A DNA stretch of 64,000 nt from Patellaria atrata CBS 101060 (taxonomy: Eukaryota): positions 3,312,061-3,376,060 of the forward strand of contig MU006089.1 in assembly GCA_010093705.1 (NCBI GenBank), in the 5' to 3' direction. Under the pieces are notes generated by a model that worked only from the letters and a program-made list of their open reading frames with translations, did not search any database and was not told the DNA's origin. Both the position numbers and the translations under genes were made by a program. Each line of letters begins with the position of its first letter. The first letter of the stretch is position 1. Below, one piece after another: positions 1 to 62,953 of the stretch.

Positions 1-1729
1 CCCTCATACGCTCCGCGACGCTCCCCTGGCGCGCCACCTCCTCATAGCTCGGAATAGGTGGCTCATCCGGGCCCGGTGTCCTCGTCCTCTGCCTCTCGAC
101 ATCCCTCTCCCTATCCTCGTCCACAGAGTCCCGATGGAAGCGCAGGAGTCTTTCCCTCTCCGGCGTGCCGTCCGGGGACTCGTACTCAGGCGGGGGAACA
201 TTGAGGCTTTCGAACTGGACGCCCAAACCCGGCGGTTGACGCTGGTGTGAGGGTGACAGCGAGTGTGTCCGAGGCGGATAGTGTTGCTGCAAGCCGGGAT
301 GCGGTTCCACAACGGCGCTAGTGCCCTCGCCGACGTCGATGACAGACTCCTCTGTATCGACGAGAGAGAGTTGCGCGAGCGAGATGTCGGTCGGGCTCCT
401 CTGCGGGCCGGGGGATGTGGGTTGGTTCCTCCCGGTGCGCATCTGGGCGCTGGCGCTCCTCCCGTGGTTGGGCTGCCAGCCTTGCGGGAAGTAGCTTGTA
501 AAGCCTGCGCCTTCTCTTATGCCTTCGCGGCCGCCTTCGAGGAGGATGCTTCCTTGTTCGCTGCCGTAGGGGGGTGGTGGTGCGAGGGAGCCGGTCATAG
601 GTGCCAGGCCCCACTTCTTGACGTTCGCTTCGATGAAGACGAAACCCATTTGGCCGAAGTTGACGTGGACTTGGCAAGGACCGTTGGCGCCGACGGTGGG
701 GAAGAGGTTCTGGGTTTTCAGACCGTGGGCGACGTCTTCGAGTTTCTTACCGTTGCGGGTGAAGAAGACGGTTCCGGTTCGCGGTCGGTAACCTACACCG
801 ATAACGTCACCTTGAACGAACGCGGGTCCATAGGGAGTGGAATAGAATGGTTGATTATATCGGCGAGCGCCGTGGGATGTGTATGCGACGGAAGTCTTAT
901 GCCAGCCTGTATTGAAAGTCAGATATCGTTCCCACGTGCTATCGGATGGTCCTCGATTGTGGAAACTTACCAGGTAATCGAAATAGGGGGTACGGTTTCG
1001 TTGACATTCCTATTGATATCATAGTCGATTCCGGCTTCTCGTATATCTTGGCTTCCCAGTAATAGACTTCATTTTGCTTTGGTACCGGTAGATTACTCTG
1101 AACACTGCATTCCGAATCAAAGAATTCTATTTCTGTTCTTCCCTCGACGAAGCAATTCGCAATCTCCAACTCGGGCTCGAACTCCCAAGCTGAAACGCCC
1201 TTCTCTTGTATCGCTAAGAACTGTGATAAGGATATATCTGTCGGTGCGGACTCCGGGGGATTTGCTTGTATAAATGCTATATCGCGTTAGTAATCCATGT
1301 TTAATCAGAGTAACGTATGCCAAGTCCACATATGTGTAGCTGTATGTGCCTACCTTTCGCCCTCAAATATTCCGCCTTTGACATTTCATCCATCTCCTCC
1401 AACGCCTCCGCCTCCTCTTTCGCAAACTGCTGCTCATCATCATATTCCCCAGGTCTCCCAATACTATCCAAAAATATGCGCCCGGGTCGTGTGCATCGGA
1501 AGAACCAAACGAGCGCGAATATTAGGACTACGATGCCCGCGGACCCAAACGCCGATAACATGCCAATCAGTATCCCTCTCCCCGTCCCACCCATATCAAC
1601 CTGTGATATCCTCATTTTATCTGCCGCTGCCAAATTCTGCTGGATGATTATTCTTCTCGCGGTCTGTTGTGGCGATAACGTTGATATGGTGGACAGAGTG
1701 GTTGGGAGGATGACGGCTTGCCGTCCCAT
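1..1729 (-). CDS. SSH4: SSH4-like SPRY-domain single-pass membrane protein (Rsp5 adaptor); 3' end runs off the window
   Basis: TM segment GILIGMLSAFGSAGIVVLIFALVWFF. Splicing introns 1277-1353 and 907-970 joins ...AEYLRAK-AFIQANPP...WEFEPELEIANCFVEGRTEIEFFD...PYPLFRLPG-WHKTSVAY...GDVIGVGY...NFGQMGFVFIEANVKKWGLAP. PY-type motifs PPPPY and PPEY follow. No stop before position 1. Start is ATG 1729 or 1615. Confidence 0.88.
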
Positions 1730-44394: not shown

Positions 44395-47187
44395 ATGGCT
44401 TCAGGCATGAACTTTACAGATCGGGCGTCACAAGCTTTAAGTGCTGCCCAAGAACTCGCAACACAATACGCACATTCACAACTCCTACCTGTACATCTAG
44501 CAGTCGCCCTCATCGACCCTCCACCGGACCTCTCTAAAGATCAACAAAACAACTCCGCTCACGAAACACACGCCGCTTCTTCCGCTCCACTCTTCAAACA
44601 AGTTGTCGAGAGGGCTCATGGTGATCCTCAGCTACTAGACCGTGCCTTGAAGAAGGCATTGGTCCGTCTACCTAGCCAAGATCCTCCGCCAGAGCACGTG
44701 TCCATATCACCATCCTTCTCAAAAGTCCTAAGAGCCGCCAATGAACTCTCGAAAACACAAAAAGATAGCTACATTGCCGTGGATCACCTAATACAATGTC
44801 TCGCACAGGACTCGACCATTCAACGATGTTTGGCAGATGCAAACATTCCCAAATCAAACCTGATCGATCAGGCAATCCAACAGATCCGTGGCACAAAGAG
44901 AGTGGACTCTAAGACCGCCGATGCGGAGGCGGAGAATGAGAACCTAAAGAAATTCACAATCGACATGACCGCCATGGCACGAGAAGGCAAGATCGATCCT
45001 GTCATCGGTCGTGAAGAAGAAATCAGACGAGTTGTCCGAATCCTTTCACGACGAACGAAGAACAATCCTGTCCTCATCGGTGAACCCGGTGTCGGAAAGA
45101 CAACAGTCGTCGAAGGTCTTGCTCAACGTATCGTCAACGCTGATGTTCCGGCGAATCTAGCAGCATGTAAGCTTCTATCGTTGGATGTCGGCGCCCTCGT
45201 GGCCGGAAGCAAATACAGGGGAGAGTTCGAGGAGAGGATGAAGGGTGTCTTGAAAGAGATCGAAGACTCCAAGGAGATGATTGTTCTCTTCGTCGACGAA
45301 ATACACTTACTCATGGGCGCTGGGTCAAGTGGTGAAGGTGGCATGGACGCCGCTAATTTGCTCAAACCCATGCTTGCTAGAGGCCAGTTGCACTGCATTG
45401 GTGCTACAACCTTAGGCGAGTACCGCAAATATATCGAAAAGGACCAAGCCTTCGAACGTCGTTTCCAACAGGTCCTTGTCAAAGAGCCCACCATCCCCGA
45501 AACCGTCTCTATCCTTCGTGGCTTGAAAGACAAGTACGAGACTCATCACGGTGTCACTATCCTCGATGGTGCTATCGTCTCTGCTGCTAACCTCGCGGCT
45601 CGTTACCTCACGCAACGTCGGTTACCCGACTCGGCTGTTGATTTGATCGATGAAGCTGCAGCCGCCGTGCGAGTTACCCGTGAATCACAACCAGAAGCAT
45701 TGGATAACATGGAACGGAAGCTACGTCAGCTCCAAATTGAAATTCACGCTCTAGACAAGGAGAAGGACGAAACAGCCAAACAACGTCTCCGAGAAGCGAA
45801 AGCAGAGGCCGCTAATATCGAAGAAGAGCTGAAACCTCTTCGTGAGAAATACGAAAGCGAGAAGGAACGCAGTAAAAAGATTCAAGAACAGAAGCTGAAG
45901 CTTGAGGAGAAGAGGGTGAAGTTGGCTGATGCAGAACGTGCTCGCGACTTTGAATCAGCTTCAGACTTGAAATACTACGTCATCCCAGACATTGAGGCAC
46001 ACATAGAGCGATTGGAGGCTGAGAAAGCCCGAAGTGATGCAGAGATGTATACACGGTCTGGAGGACAAGAAGCACTCCTCACGGATGCAGTTGGCCCTGA
46101 TCAAATCAACGAGATTGTGGCCCGCTGGACCGGTATTCCGGTAACCCGTCTGAAAACGACCGAAAAGGACAAGCTCCTTCAGATGGAGAAGCATCTCAGC
46201 AATATCGTTGTCGGTCAAAGGGAGGCGGTGACATCGGTCTCTAATGCGATCCGTCTCCAACGTTCTGGCCTGGCAAATCCGAATCAACCACCTAGCTTCT
46301 TGTTTTGCGGTCCCTCGGGTACTGGTAAGACTCTCTTGACCAAGGCTCTTGCCGAGTTCTTGTTCGACGATCCGAAGTCGATGATCAGGTTCGATATGTC
46401 GGAATATCAGGAGAGGCACTCGCTTAGCAGGATGATTGGCGCTCCACCAGGATATGTTGGCCACGATGCTGGTGGGCAGTTGACAGAAGCCCTCCGCCGC
46501 CGTCCATTTTCCATCTTGTTGTTCGACGAGGTCGAGAAAGCGGCGAAAGAGGTTCTTACCGTCCTTCTACAGCTTATGGATGACGGTCGTATCACCGATG
46601 GCCAGGGAAGAATCGTCGATGCGAAGAACTGCATTGTCGTCATGACATCCAACCTTGGTGCTGAGTATCTTTCACGACCAAACGCACCGGACGGTCGAAT
46701 TGACCCAACAACAAGGGAACTCGTCATGGGTGCTCTTCGCAACTGGTTCCTTCCGGAATTTCTCAACCGTATCAACAGCATCGTAATCTTCAACCGTCTC
46801 ACCAGGCGCGAGATCAGGAAGATCGTCGATGTACGCATGGTCGAAATTCAGAAGAGGTTGAACGGCAATGGACGCAACGTCAAGATCGACATGACGGAAG
46901 AAGTGAAAGACCATCTTGGCAGCGCCGGATACTCACCTGCCTATGGTGCCAGACCGCTTGCACGGCTCATTGAAAAGGAAGTACTCAATCGTATGGCAGT
47001 ACTTATTCTTAGGGGCAGTATTCGTGACGGTGAAGTCGCTCATGTCGTTCTTGAGGATGGACATGTGCAAGTCCTACCTAATCACGGTGATAGTGATTTA
47101 GAGGCTGAAGATAGTGAGATGTATGATGAAGAGGATGCGATTGCTGATTTGGAAGATGGAGATACAGGAATGGATCTCTACGACTAG
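44395..47187 (+). CDS. HSP104: Heat shock protein Hsp104/ClpB AAA+ disaggregase, intronless
   Basis: Clp-N domain; Walker A GEPGVGKT and GPSGTGKT; Walker B LFVDEIH and LLFDEVEK; coiled-coil M domain; [14 protein letters not shown]; acidic C-terminus ...MDLYD. Confidence 0.97.
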
Positions 47188-51429: not shown

Positions 51430-51500
51430 TGCATTCTCCGGGAATCGAACCCGGGGCCCGTCGATGGCAACGACGGATTTTACCACTAAACCAAGAATGC
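51430..51500 (-). tRNA. tRNA-Gly (anticodon GCC), intronless
   Basis: Reverse complement GCATTCTTGGTTTAGTGGTAAAATCCGTCGTTGCCATCGACGGGCCCCGGGTTCGATTCCCGGAGAATGCA: acceptor stem GCATTCT/AGAATGC, anticodon stem CGTCG/CGACG around TTGCCAT, and GGTTCGATTCC T-loop. Confidence 0.97.
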
Positions 51501-52935
51501 TATAGGCTTGTTTGATATATGAATAGCAACGCAATGGGTACTATATAAGTACAAAAAATAATTGGGGTATGGGGGAAAGCGGACAACTATCATTGGTAAG
51601 CGAGCGTCGCCAAGAGTTGGCCTCTTACAAAAGTTTGCCATGTGATAGCATATACATGCTCATAAGGGGGACTACTCGAATAAAATATTTTGCAAAAATA
51701 GAGGGCCTACGCCAGGGGCTCTGTAAGTATGCTTTTAAGGTTTTACCGCTAAGTCTTAAGATTATTTTGTATCCGAGTTGAAAATGGAAGGAAGTACTGC
51801 TCAGGTCACGTGTTGGTCGCCGTCATTTCTAGTTCTAAGTACACATCCTTTCCTCCTCTCGTCACCTCAATACTCTTTCATTTCATCAACATACGTGATT
51901 CTCGAAAATGACAACTACAGAAATAATGATTTTCGAAAGGACCAAATAGGTCTCGCAAGGAAACTCATCCCTCCTGTTATAATGGGCTCTCCTTGGTTGG
52001 TTCACGCATGCTTTTACGCTCGCAGAACGACACCCAAGCGTAGGTTTCGATGATTTTCCTAAGTTCTCAACGTTATATAAATCTATACTCCTTACAGTCG
52101 TTATTCGATCTGGTAGTTACATACGAGCCACAGATCATTTTATAGGAATAGTACAGTAGCATAGGGATCTACGACGAAGGGTAGGGTCATTGTGAATATC
52201 AGGATCTTTCTAGTAGCAAGGGATTACTCCAGCGACAAAAGTATAATTGGAACTCGAGAAATACAATTCATTTCTTCAACTAGTTAATGCTTCATTATAG
52301 TTTACTCTGAAAGAGGATACATTAGGTATCTCATGATGCACCATCTTTTGCATTGTTGCACTTCACTCTTCAAATATTTGCATTGACGAAGTCTACGTAC
52401 CTTTCAAATGACAATTTCCACACCGATTCACTTCACATAACTTTCTTTTACCGCATACTTATTGAAGCGCTCCAAACAAACGACAATGCGCAATAATCCG
52501 AGTCCAGCTGCACGTGTTAGCCCTTCCGCAAAAAAATTTTACCTTCATCACCAGCTCTTAAGAAAAAGATCTCACAACTACGCTCTCTCTTCAAACCTGT
52601 CTCACTGTTCAAGGCCAAACATAACTCACTCAGCTATCACAATTGAACCTCGAGGGTTTTATCACTCAACAGAAGTAGGTCCATTCGAAATTTTCACATT
52701 CAACCTCATCCTTAATTTGAGTCTTGATCACGAGAGATACAACATTACCGCAATTTCCACTGTGTATTCTTAAACTCTTCATCACACTTGCACTTTGGAA
52801 ATGATTCTCAACCATTCCCGCTTATTGAATTCGTAACGCCAATCTGACACATAGGAAGCCAGCCGTCCCAGTTACCAGAAATCAATCAAATTTTCCTTCT
52901 CCGCCTTTTTACCTCACTATCCATAAACCGTCATC

Positions 52936-53691
52936 ATGAATACTCAACCCACACAAGTTGTACAAGATCAAGCACAGGCCGCTCATACCACCGTTCAAGT
53001 AGTTGTACCAGTTATCATCAAGCTGGATGTACTCAACGGGAATTTTTTCACCATCACCGTCAACGCACGCCTACTGAGGGCGTATAGCTCTCGTGCCTGG
53101 GCCAGACTCACCGATGATGCTCAGTGGGCTCCCGCAAAGATCCTCAATCTCCCATACCTCTCCACGATTCCGGATGCGCTCACATGTATCGTCGGCTGGA
53201 TGAAGATGATTGGGATGCCAAATCCTGTATTGAGGGTTGCGGACGTGGGATATCCCACAGAGGGAAGGTTCGAGGAATTTGTATGGCTATACAAGACGTA
53301 TTGCCTCTTGGGGATCCCAATGCCCCAGCATGTGTACAAGCGAACCCTACAGCGCTGGATTGATGGGTCTGGTGGGAGGATCATAACTCCCGATGAACTG
53401 GACATCGCCTGGGATGCTCTGGACCCAGCGGAACCAGTGATCAAGACTATAGTCGCAAGACACGCTTGGAGAGGGTACGCGGGACGTGTACTACGTGAAT
53501 GTGGTACCACCCACCACGGAAGGGTTGAAGAATGGGTGGCCCAAACAATGCAGGAGGCACCAGAGAATGTGCGGATGGAGGAGGTGACGCTTTGGCGTCA
53601 TAAATACTATATGGAAACGGAGACGGTGGGAATGTGCAATTGGCAAAGACGCTTAACACGAGGACCCCCTACAAATGGCGAGCGGGATTAG
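52936..53691 (+). CDS. Hypothetical protein, divergent BTB/POZ-like family member A (251 aa)
   Basis: ITVNARLLRAYSSRA...ILNLP...DALTCIVGWM, then ELDIAWDAL...VARHAWRG...EEW...ETVGMCNWQRRL shared with neighbouring ORFs. Confidence 0.7.
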   Translation: MNTQPTQVVQDQAQAAHTTVQVVVPVIIKLDVLNGNFFTITVNARLLRAYSSRAWARLTDDAQWAPAKILNLPYLSTIPDALTCIVGWMKMIGMPNPVLRVADVGYPTEGRFEEFVWLYKTYCLLGIPMPQHVYKRTLQRWIDGSGGRIITPDELDIAWDALDPAEPVIKTIVARHAWRGYAGRVLRECGTTHHGRVEEWVAQTMQEAPENVRMEEVTLWRHKYYMETETVGMCNWQRRLTRGPPTNGERD

Positions 53692-54200
53692 GTACGAACT
53701 CCTTGTTTAAGGTCTATCTGTACATGTCTAACTAAAACTATCCAGGGGTACCATGGCTAAATACGGAGAGAATGTACCACTCTATACGCCGTACTCTAAT
53801 CGTGTCTAATCTTATCCTATCCTCCAATAACCATAACCTAGGACTGTGCTTAGCTGCGATTGGCTACGAATAATGTTGTACGATATGAATAATGGCGGCA
53901 TCACGACATGATCACTTTCTAGTTAACAATGGCATTGTATTGCAGAGTTTCATACCGCTTTAATTCCCGAATTTTCTCCCCTCAATTAATAACAATGTGG
54001 TTGATGTGCACAATGTCAATAGTCAACTAATGATTTAACTGATACAAATCCCAACTAGAATTTTACAAAGCAGAGAGATTGAAAACAGTAAATCTTATCA
54101 CTCTTAGCACCATATACCGCTTCTGGTAAGACTTTCAATCTATTCACATCTTCATCCCCCAAGCCTTAAACGAAAGATAATTTTTACTTCACTAACTAAT

Positions 54201-54971
54201 ATGGAAGACTTACTCCCACCTACTCGAGTCTCTACACTTTATCGCTCTAGACTGCACTTTCCAGAAGAACCCATTACTCCTCTCCCTCCAATCAGTCCAC
54301 TCATCCATCTCTCAGACACCACCCTCGTCGTACTCTCCGCCTGTCCAGACCCAGACTCGACCTTCGTCTACCGTACTACCCCCATCTCCCGCTCCCTTCT
54401 CCTTAAGCATAGTATCTATGCCGCACACCATCTCACTCCCGAAATATCAGAACTACGGCTTCCGAGTGGGTCCGCCACCCCGACATCATTAAACAATGTT
54501 CATGGATTATTCGCAATGCTTGCAGATGAGAAAGAGAATGGAAGAACTGGGATCAAGTTCAAGGAGGCAGTTTGGGCGTATCGGACCTTAAGTGTATTGG
54601 AGTGGAAGGCCATGGCGGACAAGGAGTATGAAAAGCTGAGTAAGTACATACTCGAGAAACCGGATGTCAAGGATGAGGATCTCGATATCGTGTGGGATGT
54701 TCTTGAACCAGGTGAGAGGCTGTGGTGGGATGTTGTTGATAGATTTGGGTGGAGAGGTGAGGCTGTAAAGCAACGATTCGAAACTTTAGGGGTGAGTAGA
54801 TTGGGGACAGAGAAGAGGAGGGGTATTGAGGGTTGGGTGGATGAGATGGAGGACTTCTTTGAGAGCGAGCGGTTGAGGAGTCATAAGAGGTACGTGGAGC
54901 TGGAGAAGTTTGGGGATTGTGAGTGGCAGAAGAGGTTAGTGGAGGAGGGCACTAGCGGGAGTCAGTGTTAA
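54201..54971 (+). CDS. Hypothetical protein, divergent BTB/POZ-like family member B (256 aa)
   Basis: TPISRSLLLKHSIYA...ELRLP, then DLDIVWDVL...VDRFGWRG...EGWV...EKFGDCEWQKRL. Confidence 0.7.
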   Translation: MEDLLPPTRVSTLYRSRLHFPEEPITPLPPISPLIHLSDTTLVVLSACPDPDSTFVYRTTPISRSLLLKHSIYAAHHLTPEISELRLPSGSATPTSLNNVHGLFAMLADEKENGRTGIKFKEAVWAYRTLSVLEWKAMADKEYEKLSKYILEKPDVKDEDLDIVWDVLEPGERLWWDVVDRFGWRGEAVKQRFETLGVSRLGTEKRRGIEGWVDEMEDFFESERLRSHKRYVELEKFGDCEWQKRLVEEGTSGSQC

Positions 54972-55486
54972 GTTTAGTATATCTACCTCGTTCAAAATAT
55001 ATTCAAGTTTACATATACTTAACACCTTAGAATTACTAGAAAAAGGGTCATTTTCAAAAATTGATATCATCCGCCCCCCTGAAAAAACTCTAACAAAAAA
55101 GGAGCTAAATAATAATAGATAGCGTAGTTGGGGAGAAAATAAAGAACGACACAGCAAAAAACCGAATTCAGGTGACTTTGAAGTCAACTATGACGGCATT
55201 GCAGATAGACGAAGTACCTGCCTACTCGGCCATATGCCCGCGCTCTATGGAAGGAAGAATGGTTGGAGGTGCTTATGACTTGCAGACTGTGAGGGCAGTC
55301 ACTCGTGGTTTTGTACGTGCCTTCCTTCCCTCGTGGTTTTGTACATTACATACGCGCTGTGGGATCTTGCAGTCGATTACCTAGTTCTAATATGTTGTTC
55401 CCAGTTTTCGAAAGAAACCTCTTAACAATTATAACTATGATCATGACGTTTAGGGTCACAGACGACTCAGATATGGAACACACTCC

Positions 55487-55640
55487 ATGAACATGATGCC
55501 CAATATTGGGCGAGGAAAACAAGCCACTTGTTTCAACAAATATATATACATCGGTACCGGATCCGGTGTGTCGACCAACGGGATGATGGGACGAGTGAAT
55601 CGACATTTTAGTCACACTCACAGGGCAAAAGAACTGAGGT
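55487..55640 (+). pseudogene. Possible degenerate GIY-YIG nuclease fragment
   Basis: KYIYIGTGSGVSTNGMMGRVNRHF resembles the YIG...R-x3-H core. Flanking frames are broken and no intact upstream GIY motif is visible. Confidence 0.3.
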
Positions 55641-56112
55641 ACGATACCAATCCAGTAAGATTTTTGACAATAATACTAATATGGTTCGAAGAGGACATTG
55701 ACTACGAGGGAACAAATTACACAATGCAATTGAAAACAGATATTATAAAAAATACCACCACCCCCTGGATCTGGTGGCTGTACGAGAGAGCGAGAGTAAT
55801 CATCCGTCATTCCTGCACTACTGTATCTGTCACTTATGTGTCACTTTCTTCCAATAATTCTAGTTTCTTCTGTCTAAATTGTATCTGGTGTGTACAACGT
55901 ATTTGTGCAAGTCTTAAATTGCATATCTGGCTCGAACAACGTCTTTATCCCAGTCTGAACTACTATATCCATTTCTTCCATCATTAGTCGATATAAACTC
56001 CAAGATATCTCCTTTCTACAACCAGAACCATATCTACCATCTACCAGCTACCAGCTACCATCTACTCTCTTTGAATCGCTGGTCGGTCATACATCCTATA
56101 TATACGAACGCC

Positions 56113-56835
56113 ATGAACACCCTAACCCCACAGTCACCATTTCCTCTAAACACAACTATTTCATTCGAACTAATCTACCCCGTTTGGCCCCTTTCCCCTT
56201 TCACCAACATACCCACCTACCCGACCTCCATCATCTACACCTGGCTCAGATCCCACACCTGCTCCTTCTGCCGCACGAACCCCATTCCCTCCTCCAACCT
56301 CCGCTACGCCAGCATCATCATGACTCCCTTCTGCAGCGATCCTTTCACCCTCCCTTCCGGCCCCTCCTACACCACCCTTCCCATCTGTCGCTCTCTCCTC
56401 ACGCATTTCTCACCCTACGCAACTCGGTCCCTCGACCCTACGGGACCAGCGTTCTACCTCCCTTTCCGCATCCCTGACAACGCGGACAACGCGGCCGCAT
56501 TAGAGGCGGCGCTAGACGCACTCACCTACGTCTACGAGCGACTGCAGTATCTAGGCCGCGGCGTGATACCAGTACATCCCTTCGGATCGGACTGGGTGCT
56601 CGTGTCCCTCATTGCCGTGGAGAAGCCGGATATGCTAGATAACTTCCTCGCGCGCGTGTTGGCGAAGAGGATGTTTGCCGCGCTAGATATGCGGGACGAG
56701 GAGCGCTTGATGGGGTTGTGGTTGGGGCGAAGGTGGGAGAGGGTGTTTGAGGAGGAGGGGAGTCTGAATGCGTTGCCGGAGTGTGCGCCTTTGATGGATG
56801 GAGTGGTGTGGCGGGATTGGGTGGTGGATGTTTAG
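56113..56835 (+). CDS. Hypothetical protein, divergent BTB/POZ-like family member C (about 240 aa)
   Basis: ATG 56113; TLPICRSLLTHFSPYA...AFYLP...ALDALTYVYERL matches the N-terminal motif of A, B and D. The C-terminus is more divergent and lacks the WRG block. Confidence 0.6.
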   Translation: MNTLTPQSPFPLNTTISFELIYPVWPLSPFTNIPTYPTSIIYTWLRSHTCSFCRTNPIPSSNLRYASIIMTPFCSDPFTLPSGPSYTTLPICRSLLTHFSPYATRSLDPTGPAFYLPFRIPDNADNAAALEAALDALTYVYERLQYLGRGVIPVHPFGSDWVLVSLIAVEKPDMLDNFLARVLAKRMFAALDMRDEERLMGLWLGRRWERVFEEEGSLNALPECAPLMDGVVWRDWVVDV

Positions 56836-56949
56836 GAGGGGGAAAAGAAGGGTTTGAAGAGGATGAGGGAGTATGATGATATTGAGGAGTAGTGGTAATT
56901 AAGAATGATTCTAGAATAGTATATCACAATGTCATATTTTTGTTCAGAA

Positions 56950-57255
56950 ATTATGTATATAAGGTTTATATCTTTATCCTAAGTTTATGTTTATGAATCT
57001 TATAGCTTTATTATAAGTTCATGTATGTTAGTTTTATATCTTTATCCCGACTTCGTGTATACTATTCTTATATTTATATCCTACTTTTGTGTATATTAGG
57101 TTTGCATCTTTATACAAACTTCATGTTTGTTAGCCTTGTATCTTTATCCTAAGTTCATGTTTATTAGTCTCATATCTTTATTCTAAGTTTGTGTATATCA
57201 GTTTTATATCTTTATCCTAACTTCGTGTTTGTTAGTCTTATATCTCTATCTTTAC
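56950..57255. repeat. AT-rich minisatellite, 9 x 34 bp
   Basis: Units start at 56950, 56984, 57018, 57052, 57086, 57120, 57154, 57188 and 57222 (exact 34-bp period). Approximate consensus TTCATGTATATTAGTCTTATATCTTTATCCTAAG. Confidence 0.92.
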
Positions 57256-57783
57256 TGAGACATCTTAAATAAGACTATGTGTACATTAATAGACGTCCCG
57301 GATATTCTTGTAAGGAATTACCAGTGGTTCGTGATGAACAAAGCCTCAAGCAAATGGTATGTATTATGTTGTTACCTATCTGCTGGTCCTGATTTTATCT
57401 AACGGTGAATCACCTATTACCCTTTTAATCTAGATCAATATCCAGCTTCCATTCAGCCTCCAATCATTGGATCGATTAAAGTAACAATCAATCGGACAAA
57501 TCGTGAAAATTCTTCCCTTATTTTACAGTATAATCAAAGACACGTTAACTGTGAGCGTACATTGAACAAGCAATACCACGACGAGAAGCTATATAACTCT
57601 AGTATCACGTTCGCAAAAAGCATATTGTCAACATCACGTTCACAAAAGCGCCATTTTCAACATTGTTCACAATTCCCCAAAACACAACACAAACATTGTA
57701 CCCCGAGCAACAATGTACTCGACCTAATCATAAAGGAGGGTACTCCCACATATTCGATCTCAAACACTTTGAACGACGTCAAC

Positions 57784-59028
57784 ATGCCACATCGAAACGC
57801 CTCGAAGGCGTCCCCATCCCACAGTGACATGCCACTTCGCATCATGACCGCTCTGCGCTCCGCAGCTTCAACGTGCTCATTCGCATTGAGTGAACTGACC
57901 TGCTCCACCCCTACTACACCAAGTGACATGTCTATGCTGTCTCGAGTAAAGCGGGAGGCCGCGAACGGTGGTGTGGCGAAGGGTACGAGGTTGCGGAGCG
58001 AAGTGAAGACGCATTCGAGTGTGTCCATAGGCTTGGAAAGGGGAAAGCAGCAGTCTACTATGCCAGGAGGATCTGGTCCTAAAGCGCAAAAGGAGACTCA
58101 CTACAGGACGGTGAATCCATCTCCACAACCTAGGCCAGTCCTCCCTCCAGCATCCTCGCATAATCCCGATCTGGGTCTTTCTTCGGCCTCACACACCAAC
58201 CTTTATCATCTTCACCCCCAACCTAATCCAGCTATTTTGCCCTTCCATACCCGGCAGTCCCTCCTCCACGGCCCGAAAACTACCCTTCAGCTGCGTCTCC
58301 ACAACACCTATTCAAACGACCATCCTATGCCGCATCCCGAAATCAACAACGTATCCTTAGGCATTCTCTTGTTCTTTAGCCCCGCCATCCGCACTCACCT
58401 GGGTCCAAAACCCTGGAGACTCTCACCGGAGATCAAAATCCCTGAGGACGGGTCGATCCTCTGGGGGCTGAAGTACCTGGTAGGTTGGATGTACCACGTA
58501 TCCCGGACGCACAGACCGCGCGGATTACTAGACTATCGTGGGGAAATGGGAGACAGAGTGGTATACGGAATGGTGCTCGTGTGGAAGGCGTGTAGGGCAT
58601 TGGGCATGGTCATCGAACTCGGCGTCGTGGAACGGTATATTCACAATTTGATCTCTAACCCCTCAGTGCAGATGTCAGCAGAGGGATTAGACGTGTTTTG
58701 GGATGCGCTCCCGTCTTGGCATCCGTTCATCCAGATGGTGGTGGAGAGATACGGGTGGCGAGGCTTCCTGATACAGCAGGAGGAGGAGGCGCTGGATGCG
58801 AGTGTTATGATCAGGGAGCTCGCGGTTGCGAATTGGGTGGATAGGAATGAGAAGTATGTGCTAGAACATGGTAGCTTTGAGGATGGAGAGGGTGGAGAGT
58901 TTGAGGTACAGAATTGGGACAGAAGCCATGCAGCACACATTACTTATCTTGCGAATGAAGCGAAAGGTTCAATGAGGTGGCAGTTTGGGTTGCTCCTTGT
59001 GAATCCTGAGGCCAGTGATCAATTATGA
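57784..59028 (+). CDS. Hypothetical protein, divergent BTB/POZ-like family member D (about 414 aa, disordered N-terminal extension)
   Basis: First ATG 57784; NNVSLGILLFFSPAI...EIKIP...GLKYLVGWM, then GLDVFWDAL...VVERYGWRG...ANWV...NEAKGSMRWQFGL. Confidence 0.7.
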   Translation: MPHRNASKASPSHSDMPLRIMTALRSAASTCSFALSELTCSTPTTPSDMSMLSRVKREAANGGVAKGTRLRSEVKTHSSVSIGLERGKQQSTMPGGSGPKAQKETHYRTVNPSPQPRPVLPPASSHNPDLGLSSASHTNLYHLHPQPNPAILPFHTRQSLLHGPKTTLQLRLHNTYSNDHPMPHPEINNVSLGILLFFSPAIRTHLGPKPWRLSPEIKIPEDGSILWGLKYLVGWMYHVSRTHRPRGLLDYRGEMGDRVVYGMVLVWKACRALGMVIELGVVERYIHNLISNPSVQMSAEGLDVFWDALPSWHPFIQMVVERYGWRGFLIQQEEEALDASVMIRELAVANWVDRNEKYVLEHGSFEDGEGGEFEVQNWDRSHAAHITYLANEAKGSMRWQFGLLLVNPEASDQL

Positions 59029-59567
59029 ATGTTGACGGATTGGATAGCTTAAATCAAAGCAATTCTTGGATATGGAGTGGTAATTTAGAAAATGTGACTA
59101 ATGTGGCCGTGGCTAATATAGTAATAAAACTTGAAAATATGTATAAATCCAATTGACTGAAATAGATCTGAACCAACACACGCCAGAGATCTTTGTTCAC
59201 CTCGTAATCGATACACGTACACCCCTCCGTTTTGATATACGTACACCCTCCCTTTCAACTGATCGGGACGTAATACGCTAAGAGCTGTACGGAGCAATTT
59301 ATGCTGTAGAACCACAGTACGGCGTCGAAACCAGCCCTTCACACATTCTATGGAGTAGTCTAATAGCACGAGAGAGTGGAGTGGGCAGTTGGAGGGCATC
59401 GTGAGTTTGACTATACTAGACGATTGACGATTGATCACTGGAGTGTGAAAAGGAATATGTACATGTATCAAAACGGAGGGAGTATAGCGGTATCAATTAG
59501 GAGATGTACGCAAACGAGTGGCGCTAATGTATTAATTTCTAAGTAGAGAGGAGCCATGGATTAGACT

Positions 59568-60626
59568 CTAAGGGGGAGGAGTGAGATCCAAGCCGTCAAC
59601 CCTAAGATGAAATGAATCACTTCTTGAGTAAGAGCCGGCAACATCGAGATCGAGGCGTCCGCGTTCACAATCCTCAAAGTCAACATCTACCGCCAGTAGA
59701 CCGTCTGTAACCTCCCAAAGTGGGCCCTTAAGCACTTCCCCAAAGGGTGAAATGATGCAAGACCCACCCCTAGAAGCGTATTCTTCGTCATCCTCAGTAG
59801 ACGTAGTCTTTCCCGACGCGTATGTTCCGCCAGTTTGCGTTGTGCCGCGTACCCATGCTGGAAGATGCCTCTTCTTCGTACACTGGTTAGAGGAGAGCAC
59901 GAATGCTCTGCCCTCGGTAGCGGCAGTTTGCATAAGAGGTAGCCAAGTAGGGCGGAAATCTGCGGTTGGAGCTAGGTACAGATTTACGTTTTGAGAATAG
60001 AGACTGTATCTGAGTAATGGCATGTAGTTTTCCCAGCATATTGCAGCGGCGAGCGTTAATTTAACACCTTTGATAGTCGTAGTCACGGCTCTGAGTGTCC
60101 TAGTACTCCCTTGTGCCCAAATGAGTCTTTCCGATCCAGTTGGCATGACCTTTCTTCTCTTCCCGATAACTCCTCGTTGGGGGCATACGTAAACGACCGC
60201 ACAGTACAGACTACCAGCAGCTTTTTCGACTAAACCAGTAACAATAAAGACACCGGTTTCACTCGCTATTCTTTCAAGCTGTTCCCTTGTTCCGTCGCCT
60301 CTGTATTTTGATCCTTTCGCAACGGGTAGCTTGCGCTCAATCCAGTATTCCCCACTACCCTCATCACCCTTAGGGGTATCTCCGAGGTCAACAGCATCGT
60401 GAAAGTATGCCAGAAATTGTTCGCGGCCAATGGGTTCCCGGTTACCTACAGCAGCACCGAAGCTACAAGTACGGGGATACCCGCCTAGGTATGCTTCAGG
60501 GAAGAGGATAAGGTCGACATCAGCATATGCAGCTTCCCGGGCAGTGTCTTCAAGGTCACGGAGTGTTTCGGCTGTAGTAGAGAGGGTGTGCTTTTGAGCG
60601 ACAGCGAGTTTAAGCTTCTGCGGCAT
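59568..60626 (-). CDS. Nitrilase / carbon-nitrogen hydrolase (Nit1-like), intronless
   Basis: Glu-Lys-Cys triad motifs [28 protein letters not shown] and [13 protein letters not shown]-terminal [14 protein letters not shown]. Confidence 0.93.
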
Positions 60627-61666: not shown

Positions 61667-62953
61667 ATGGCCGACGCTCCTATAGCCAACAATGGCACGG
61701 CTGAACAACCCAGCTGGGGGAAGGGTCAGCTTGCATCTCATACATGGATGGAGCCGGTGGTGAGTGGAATTTGTCATATGACGTTAAAGATTCTTACTGA
61801 TTGTTTCTAGATGGTCGCTAGTATCCTCTTCTTCGCCATGTTCATCAATAGGAGAAAGAACTATAGCATATTCGGTTCAGAAAAGGCATACGCTTTGTTG
61901 GAAGAAGACTCCTTAGCCGCAAGACTATCAGACGATGCTCCCACATACGATCCAGAGAATAGAGACGATCCAGAATATGTATACACAGCAAGCAAACACC
62001 CGCCCAAGCGAAGGAACTGTTGCGGAACCGTCGTCCACACTCCCAACTCCTCCCGCTTCGCAAACCATTTCCACAGCCGAATCCTGCAAAAATTCCCCTT
62101 CCTGATCGAAATGTTCTACTGGATCGTGAACTTTGGCTTCTACGCCTGCACACGGGCCATGACAGAGGTCATATTCGTCAAGGAGAAAGTCTGGGACATC
62201 GCCCAAGACCATGGCACCGGCGTATTAACCATCGAACACGAATCCTTCTTCTCGATCTTCTTTCCCATACACGAAGTTAGCTTCCAGCAATGGTTTATGA
62301 ACGGTCACACCTCCCTACTCACCTTCCTCAACCGCATTTACTCGCTCATCCACATCCCCGGCACCGTCGGCTTCATCGCCTGGTACTATTACGTTGCGCC
62401 CAACCACGGTACCTTCGCCATTGCGCGAAGAACAATGACACTGACCAACTTCATTGCCTTCACCACTTTTACCCTCTGGCCCACTATGCCGCCTCGGTTG
62501 TTACCGAAGGAATACGGCTTCTACGACACCGTACACCACGAGAACGCAGAGAGCGTCTGGGTTCAAGGAAAATACGTCAACTCCCTCGGTGCAATGCCCT
62601 CTCTGCATTTCGGCTACGCCTTCTGCATCGGTGCCGGCATGATATACCACTCCGGCATCTTCCGCCGCACCTTGAAAAAAGGCGAATCCGTCAAGTCGAA
62701 AATAGGCAAAATTCTCTATGTCGCCGGTGGTATTGCGTATCCGACTATGGTCTTAGTCGTGATCATCGCGACGGCAAATCACTATTGGCTCGATGCGGTT
62801 GCCGCCACGTTTGTGGTCCTGCTGAGTTATATGTGTAATAGAGTCTTTTTGATCCTCTTACCGCTGGAGGATCTGTTGCTCTGGTGTTTGAGGCTGGAAA
62901 AGCCGATTCCGAGTACAGGGGAGAGGTTCCATAAAAGGGGCGGGAGGATATGA
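61667..62953 (+). CDS. PAP2-superfamily (AUR1/IPC-synthase-like) integral membrane protein, 2 exons
   Basis: ATG 61667, intron 61760-61810. Multiple TM helices; WPTMPPRLLP, NSLGAMPSLHFG and ATANHYWLDA motifs. Not clearly the true AUR1 orthologue. Confidence 0.85.

Follow-up and report, generated by a model that had tools for sequence, protein, structure and literature searches.

What are the four small genes that stand in a row, all on the forward strand, in a 64,000-nucleotide stretch of contig MU006089.1 of Patellaria atrata CBS 101060 (the whole stretch is called the window below)? An earlier note, made from the sequence alone, had taken these genes, here called A to D, for four highly diverged paralogues with a BTB/POZ- or Skp1-like N-terminal half, three of them ending in an unnamed tryptophan-rich module. 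Our analysis makes it very probable that A, B and D are related by duplication and also carry a BTB fold. The open reading frames (ORFs) and their parts, with coordinates given as positions in the window, are as follows.

52936-53691, + strand: gene A, 251 amino acids (aa), predicted BTB-fold core plus helical C-terminal extension (from the ORF listing, standard code)
53008..53364, + strand: A residues 25-143, predicted core BTB fold (from the secondary structure of the AlphaFold2 model; fold-search alignments mostly span ~22..145)
53371..53688, + strand: A residues 146-251, Trp-rich helical C-terminal module (from the alignments and the model helices), made up of a hairpin at 152-189 (LDIAWDAL, VARHAWRG) and distal helices at 194-242 (WV, HxxYxxxExxGxxxWQ)
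54201-54971, + strand: gene B, 256 aa, paralogue of A with the same architecture; C-terminal module at 54651-54968
56113-56835, + strand: gene C, 240 aa, probable degenerate paralogue
57784-59028, + strand: gene D, 414 aa, paralogue; BTB-like part at ~58261-58650, C-terminal module at 58651-59025
57784-58320, + strand: N-terminal extension of D, ~150-180 residues, low-complexity, Ser/Pro/Thr-rich, with several in-frame Met codons

The four co-oriented ORFs without obvious introns had been placed exactly by the earlier note. The exact translations of A-D are called proteins in NCBI and UniRef, each a singleton cluster at 90% identity and all from one 3.59-Mb contig, so the deposited annotation has the same intronless models. 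Every motif quoted in that note is present in the translations. The N-terminal motifs read VNARLLRAYSSRA in A, ISRSLLLKHSIYA in B, ICRSLLTHFSPYA in C and VSLGILLFFSPAI in D, and the next motif reads ILNLP, ELRLP, AFYLP and EIKIP, respectively, with VGWM present in A and D. The Trp-rich module is found, as had been described, in A, B and D, which have LD[IV]xWD[AV]L, VxR[HFY][AG]WRG, WV and HxxYxxxExxGxxxWQxxL in common. The all-against-all alignment that had been proposed as a check gave significant similarity among these three: BLASTP aligned A with B at E=7e-17 (30% identity, 178 aa), A with D at E=7e-8 (24% identity, 197 aa) and B with D at E=3e-9, and tblastn of B against the A locus gave E=3e-14 across B 57-246, with the N-terminal motif included. 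Their three-way alignment has 33 invariant columns. These comparisons indicate that A, B and D are true paralogues, with a similarity beyond chance.

The fold of the N-terminal half was assigned from a predicted structure. In the AlphaFold2 model of A (predicted local distance difference test, pLDDT, 71.6; predicted template modelling score, pTM, 0.66), residues 1-24 are disordered, the strands are B1 (25-32), B2 (36-43) and B3 (68-72), and the core helices are A1 (44-50), A2 (52-57), A3 (79-92), A4 (112-125) and A5 (128-143); further helices at 152-161, 167-189, 194-206, 215-228 and 235-242 come after A5. According to Stogios 2005, the core BTB fold consists of three strands and five helices in the order B1-B2-A1-A2-B3-A3-A4-A5, and the first eight elements of the predicted structure follow this order exactly. 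Foldseek comparison of the model with the PDB gave three matches at E <= 0.001 (best E 7.3e-4, probability 1.00), and all of the matches listed are BTB-fold entries (KBTBD4, KEAP1, KBTBD2, NPR1, Skp1 complexes, SPOP, myoneurin, ZBTB8A and BTBD6). A search with VIA, which does not depend on Foldseek, returned 39 chains at Z >= 8 from 48,161 representative chains, and 48 of the 50 entries listed are by title BTB/POZ, KCTD, Skp1 or Elongin C structures, where for some complexes the matching chain is inferred from the title; the titles of ranks 46 and 50 (6sga_FQ, 9xou_D) gave no assignment to BTB-type structures. The top row had a Z of 12.3 and a root-mean-square deviation (rmsd) of 3.1 over 108 aligned residues (model 24..145), with ~100-110 residues aligned to solved BTB domains in this search, and re-comparison of the 1000 chains that Foldseek ranked best reached a maximum Z of 13.1. 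From a model of its own, the ESM Atlas offered leads only: a feature similarity of 0.97 to ascomycete clusters named 'BTB domain-containing', and template modelling scores of 0.44-0.56 to BTB, BTB-BACK and Skp1 clusters. Two structure predictors and three fold searches thus agree with the BTB/POZ-Skp1-like fold that had been proposed from a motif pattern, and the predicted structures place the N-terminal halves in the BTB/POZ fold, outside the Pfam BTB (PF00651) and Skp1 sequence families.

Of the claim of four paralogues, the part that concerns C stands less firmly. BLASTP linked C to B (E=2e-5) over the N-terminal ~140 residues of C, and gave no significance for C-A or C-D. A hidden Markov model (HMM) of A/B/D matched C over residues 85-132 only, at 12.8 bits, when the best of 1000 composition-preserving shuffles reached 4.4, and hhalign of C with A/B/D gave a probability of 29% and E 5.9e-4 across 57 columns. 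The profile built from the outside relatives alone (described below) scored A at 37.7, B at 18.8 and D at 5.8 bits, with 0 of 1000 shuffles as high for each (the best shuffle for D reached 3.5 bits). It gave C no support: the score was -0.9 bits, at least equalled by 18 of 1000 shuffles. A word-indexed homology search for relatives of C returned C alone, and the ESM Atlas model of C, at a pLDDT of 0.30, came without usable leads. The family-like part of C comprises residues ~85-149 (56365-56559) and matches the B2-A1-A2-B3-A3 segment, and no C-terminal module is recognisable in it. Because of its local match to B and its position within the array, we consider C to be probably a degenerate member, which by its sequence would have kept B2-A1-A2-B3-A3 and lost the C-terminal module.

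The duplications appear to be old. At the DNA level, identity between the aligned codons of A, B and D is 39-44%, and a repeat search found no long DNA repeat between genes A-D, in line with the lack of DNA similarity described before. At identical residues, with M and W left out of the comparison, identical codons were used at 22 of 63 positions in A-B, 16 of 46 in A-D and 15 of 44 in B-D, where 21.4, 16.2 and 15.3, respectively, are expected if synonymous codons are picked at random. Codon identity is thus at chance level while residues are kept, which means that the synonymous sites are saturated; together with the retained residues, this points to old duplications and to purifying selection on the conserved positions. 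Saturation also rules out a recent duplication or gene conversion. Repeat-induced point mutation (RIP) was considered as a cause of the lost DNA similarity and rejected, as the indices of the ORFs are not RIP-like (TpA/ApT 0.61-0.82, (CpA+TpG)/(ApC+GpT) 1.05-1.28), judged by the usual thresholds.

Relatives elsewhere are few. A word-indexed homology search with A returned only A itself. An exhaustive HMMER search of 1.84 billion representatives with the A/B/D profile gave seven proteins at E <= 0.001, including A, B and D; three of the seven are small proteins (215-336 aa, E ~6e-4, profile positions ~22-176), and a 4421-aa protein (E 2.5e-4, eight short stretches at profile positions 186-225) was set aside as probably a repeat or low-complexity artefact. 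With a six-sequence profile two further relatives were found, which makes five outside relatives, two from Cryomyces minteri and three unnamed JGI proteins. None of the five has a Pfam match, and UniRef names one of the Cryomyces minteri proteins 'BTB domain-containing protein'. hhalign of A/B/D with the five gave 98.1% probability and E 1.2e-13 over A residues 23-183, a value that is not fully independent because three of the five had been chosen by the A/B/D profile. These sparse ascomycete BTB-like proteins are of similar size, and their homology extends through the BTB core and takes in the first C-terminal hairpin, but neither the WRG motif nor the distal WV...HxxYxxxExxGxxxWQ block seen in A, B and D is present in them, and their single-profile E-values are marginal (~6e-4). 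A metagenome scan for two signature motifs of the C-terminal module matched the pattern in 531 stretches, 0 of which tblastn confirmed. The Hsp104 and CN-hydrolase neighbours of the array are themselves singletons at 90% identity in a 15-billion-protein collection (even for Hsp104, no relative reaches >=90%), which therefore contains no near relative of the genome. Taxonomically the genome stands isolated, and the missing orthologues are partly a sampling effect. To judge from the profile search, a family with an ordinary evolutionary rate would nonetheless have turned up. Within a sparse and fast-evolving group of ascomycete BTB-like proteins, A, B and D form a branch private to their lineage, and for these three the old, locally amplified and fast-evolving family that had been proposed holds good on BLASTP, rarity and saturated synonymous sites, with C only weakly tied to it.

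The C-terminal module is where the family is best conserved. It contains 4.7-5.7% Trp in A, B and D; the last 106 residues of C, at 4.7%, are Trp-rich like these modules, without alignable motifs. No named domain was found across the module in Pfam at E up to 10, so this part of the suggestion of an undescribed C-terminal domain stands. Its independence does not: in the full-length model of A the module is packed onto the BTB core; helices 152-161 and 167-189, which make up its first hairpin (LD[IV]xWD[AV]L, VxR[HFY][AG]WRG), lie inside the region common to the outside relatives; and the part that A, B and D have to themselves is confined to the distal ~65 residues (WV ... HxxYxxxExxGxxxWQxxL). 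On the predicted structure, the C-terminal block is no free-standing new domain. Identity for A-B, A-D and B-D, in that order, is 38, 35 and 38% in the hairpin and 40, 29 and 27% in the distal part, compared with 29, 22 and 17% in the BTB core and 17, 11 and 0% in the A3/A4 linker, the most variable stretch. In these alignments the module is better kept than the BTB core, the opposite of the pattern for a variable substrate-binding domain, and a helical tail more conserved than the core suggests a common partner of A, B and D.

Several solved chains can be aligned into this module. Across the hairpin, those with a BTB domain plus 3-box include KEAP1 9ety_A (13..182, Z 13.0, 146 aligned), 5nlb_A (22..173) and SPOP 3htm_A (13..180). 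In VIA the alignments extend further, over model 21..246 for NPR1 (Z 10.3, 160 aligned), 20..227 for the BTB-BACK protein A55 of vaccinia in its Cul3-bound structure (Z 10.3, 159 aligned), 20..245 for KLHL3 and 22..242 for SPOP. A BACK domain is marked by four helical hairpins behind BTB; in the model of A, five helices come after A5, alignments with BTB-BACK chains reach as far as 227-246, and the distal helices have a pLDDT of 33-70, but no match to the BACK HMM PF07707 was found at E up to 10. The 3-box, as stated in Ji & Privé 2013, is the first BACK hairpin and adds to Cul3 binding.

What, then, might A, B and D do? Tentatively, and with a confidence somewhat short of even, we propose by analogy that they are adaptor subunits of Cul3-type cullin-RING ubiquitin ligases; proteins of the cullin-adaptor type have the same architecture, a BTB core plus a helical box. 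A, B and D, and probably the decayed C too, form a tandem cluster of small intracellular proteins that is of ancient origin. In each of them a predicted core BTB/POZ fold leads into an extension made of helices alone, which packs onto the core. The BTB core and the first hairpin (LD[IV]xWD..L / VxRxxWRG, in the 3-box position) would dock onto a cullin or another common partner, which would account for the highest conservation of this part. Parts that vary among the paralogues, namely the poorly conserved linker between A3 and A4, the N-terminal extensions and the distal tail, could give each protein its own client. In this proposal we infer the binding partner, the oligomeric state and the role in ubiquitination of A, B and D. 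The likeness to the BTB plus 3-box/BACK adaptors of Cul3 (KEAP1, KLHL3/KLHL11, KBTBD2/4, SPOP and vaccinia A55) is that helical hairpins directly follow a core BTB fold. In contrast to these adaptors, A, B and D have no Kelch, MATH or other substrate domain and no PF00651 or PF07707 match, the model does not have the long-form N-terminal β1/α1, and the tail does not reach the length of a full BACK domain, its distal 65 residues being private.

A number of results weigh against this reading. Pfam, with BTB, Skp1 and BACK included, gave no match at E up to 10 for A-D, whole or as halves, and because PF00651 is among the families not matched, A, B and D are placed at the fold or superfamily level only; a sequence search of the PDB with the A/B/D profile likewise gave 0 matches at E up to 10. 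A six-sequence alignment underlies the AlphaFold2 model of A, whose residues 200-251 have a pLDDT of 33-70. The C-terminal module does not fold by itself: modelled alone, it reaches a pLDDT of 47 and a pTM of 0.29. The extra C-terminal helices do not bring Z above that of BTB-only matches and the rmsd rises to 4-6.5 Å, and this applies also to the helices right after the BTB domain in the 3-box position (152-161 and 167-189; aligned chains at rmsd 4-7 Å, no gain in Z); since Z gains nothing and rmsd rises, the equivalence to 3-box or BACK is positional and unproven. Many BTB proteins, moreover, do not bind cullins. In those that bind Cul3, a φ-x-E motif in the α3/β4 loop, just after helix α3, inserts into the cullin, as given in Ji & Privé 2013; on inspection of the alignment, no φ-x-E is common to the A/B/D linkers after A3, a region of low confidence in the model.

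That last result bears on an alternative which we regard as rather unlikely, namely that A, B and D are BTB-fold scaffolds that work without a cullin and, like many other BTB proteins, serve self-association or the binding of other partners, such as chromatin or transcription factors and signalling proteins, here by means of the BTB core and the conserved helical module. The BTB fold is supported and yet the Cul3-contact φ-x-E is absent; BTB-zinc-finger (BTB-ZF) domains match as strongly as cullin adaptors do (in VIA, BCL6 Z 11.9, myoneurin Z 11.6 and ZBTB8A Z 11.5), and the fold serves many unrelated interactions according to Stogios 2005. However, Pfam found no DNA-binding or other effector domain, the long-form N-terminal elements of the BTB-ZF dimer are absent from the model, in which residues 1-24 are disordered, and the helical extension occupies the position of the 3-box or Skp1 helices. 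A further alternative is a family of Skp1-like adaptors. Their C-terminal helices would bind an F-box-like helical motif of the partner, and a Cul1-type cullin or some other scaffold would be contacted by the BTB core; the array would then be a divergent set of Skp1 paralogues, comparable to the expansions in nematodes and plants. We judge this improbable. Skp1-type chains do align over almost all of their length, with 128 of 135 residues of 6vcd_C (model 24..217, Z 12.2, rmsd 3.1), 138 of 150 of 6byh_B (model 22..210) and 130 of 144 of ASK1 3ogl_A (17% identity); the top match in VIA, at Z 12.3, is a chain of CBF3 taken as Skp1 from the title, and the model of A has no N-terminal long-form extension. 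Against this, neither PF03931 nor PF01466 is matched at E up to 10, and the 'PxPN' of B3 described in Stogios 2005 is absent (A has LNLPY, B LRLPS and D IKIPE). The Z values tie with those of the KEAP1 and NS1-BP BTB domains, so the fold search does not discriminate. A, B and D share with Skp1 and Elongin C the small size, the core BTB fold with C-terminal helices, a near full-length alignment at Z ~12 and rmsd ~3 and a variable, poorly ordered insertion after A3, but they lack a Skp1 Pfam match and the PxPN of B3 and are ~90 residues longer, and Skp1 is highly conserved across eukaryotes whereas the A/B/D family has almost no relatives.

Another unlikely variant inverts the logic of the adaptor proposal: A, B and D would be a private, cullin-adaptor-like class in which the Trp-rich module, the most conserved part with its invariant LD.xWD.L, WRG, WV and HxxYxxxExxGxxxWQ motifs, is the constant 'box' that docks a lineage-specific partner, and the loops of the BTB surface and the N-terminal tails have diversified towards different targets. 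If so, the fast-diverging tandem set could serve conflict-type functions such as defence or allorecognition, two of the roles that had been raised for it. Finally, it is conceivable, albeit very unlikely, that A-D are relics that are no longer expressed or functional, with C decayed already and the rest following. The runs listed as carrying the stretch include no RNA run, no orthologues are known, and C has no C-terminal module and no relatives, with an Atlas pLDDT of 0.30. The ORFs, however, are intact over 240-414 codons despite the saturated synonymous sites between copies, whereas stop codons would have piled up in long-dead genes; the 33 invariant columns of A, B and D, the coding-type GC content and the frame-specific codon scores also speak against relics.

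A, B and D are lineage-private members of the BTB-fold superfamily that Pfam does not see, and part of their helical tail is private too. That BTB proteins expand in particular lineages is well established, as stated in Stogios 2005, and fungal genomics papers mention expanded BTB groups; in the fungal and ascomycete BTB-family literature we found general statements on BTB expansion and no account of an A/B/D subfamily, though one may exist. Of the 1.84 billion protein representatives, no more than three belong clearly to this cluster. It indicates that the fungal BTB/Skp1 adaptor superfamily can hold whole subfamilies that neither Pfam nor sequence search can see and that are recognisable only via predicted structure.

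ORFs A-D form islands of 50-58% GC compared with 33-42% in the AT-rich spacers, and in all four the annotated frame scores better for codon usage than the other two frames. The lowest score among the coding parts belongs to the N-terminal extension of D, and in alignments with B and C the homology seems to begin near D residue ~118-160, because of which D may start downstream of its annotated start; on this sequence evidence its true start codon is uncertain. Third-position GC is 0.73 in C, markedly above that of A, B and D (0.54-0.59). In the 64-kb window, tblastn with all members found no fifth copy or frameshifted remnant. The neighbouring genes are as follows.

44395-47187: Hsp104/ClpB, intronless, 930 aa
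48009-48938: ribonucleotide-reductase inhibitor (PF08591)
51430-51500, - strand: tRNA-Gly(GCC), after which the array A-D comes next
59568-60626, - strand: CN-hydrolase (nitrilase superfamily), beyond the array
61811-62953: PAP2_3 protein

The array is surrounded by ordinary core genes, and nothing points to a mobile element or a subtelomeric island. Two sequencing runs carry the array stretch as 18-24 kb genomic contigs with zero differences; these runs may be the source sample. Several short repeats lie in the spacers. A 7-bp microsatellite (ATCTACC x 4.9) at 56032-56065 ends ~50 bp upstream of the ATG of C, and the AT-rich C-D spacer holds a minisatellite at 56953-57250 (8.8 copies of a 34-bp unit with 72% matches; a period of 102 bp was scored as well). 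A single partial, diverged copy of this unit is found upstream of A, at 52041-52066. The spacer between D and the CN-hydrolase gene has a 24-bp tandem duplication at 59210-59255 and a 35-nt inverted repeat at 59223-59257 / 59446-59480, whose arms are 83% complementary and 188 nt apart.

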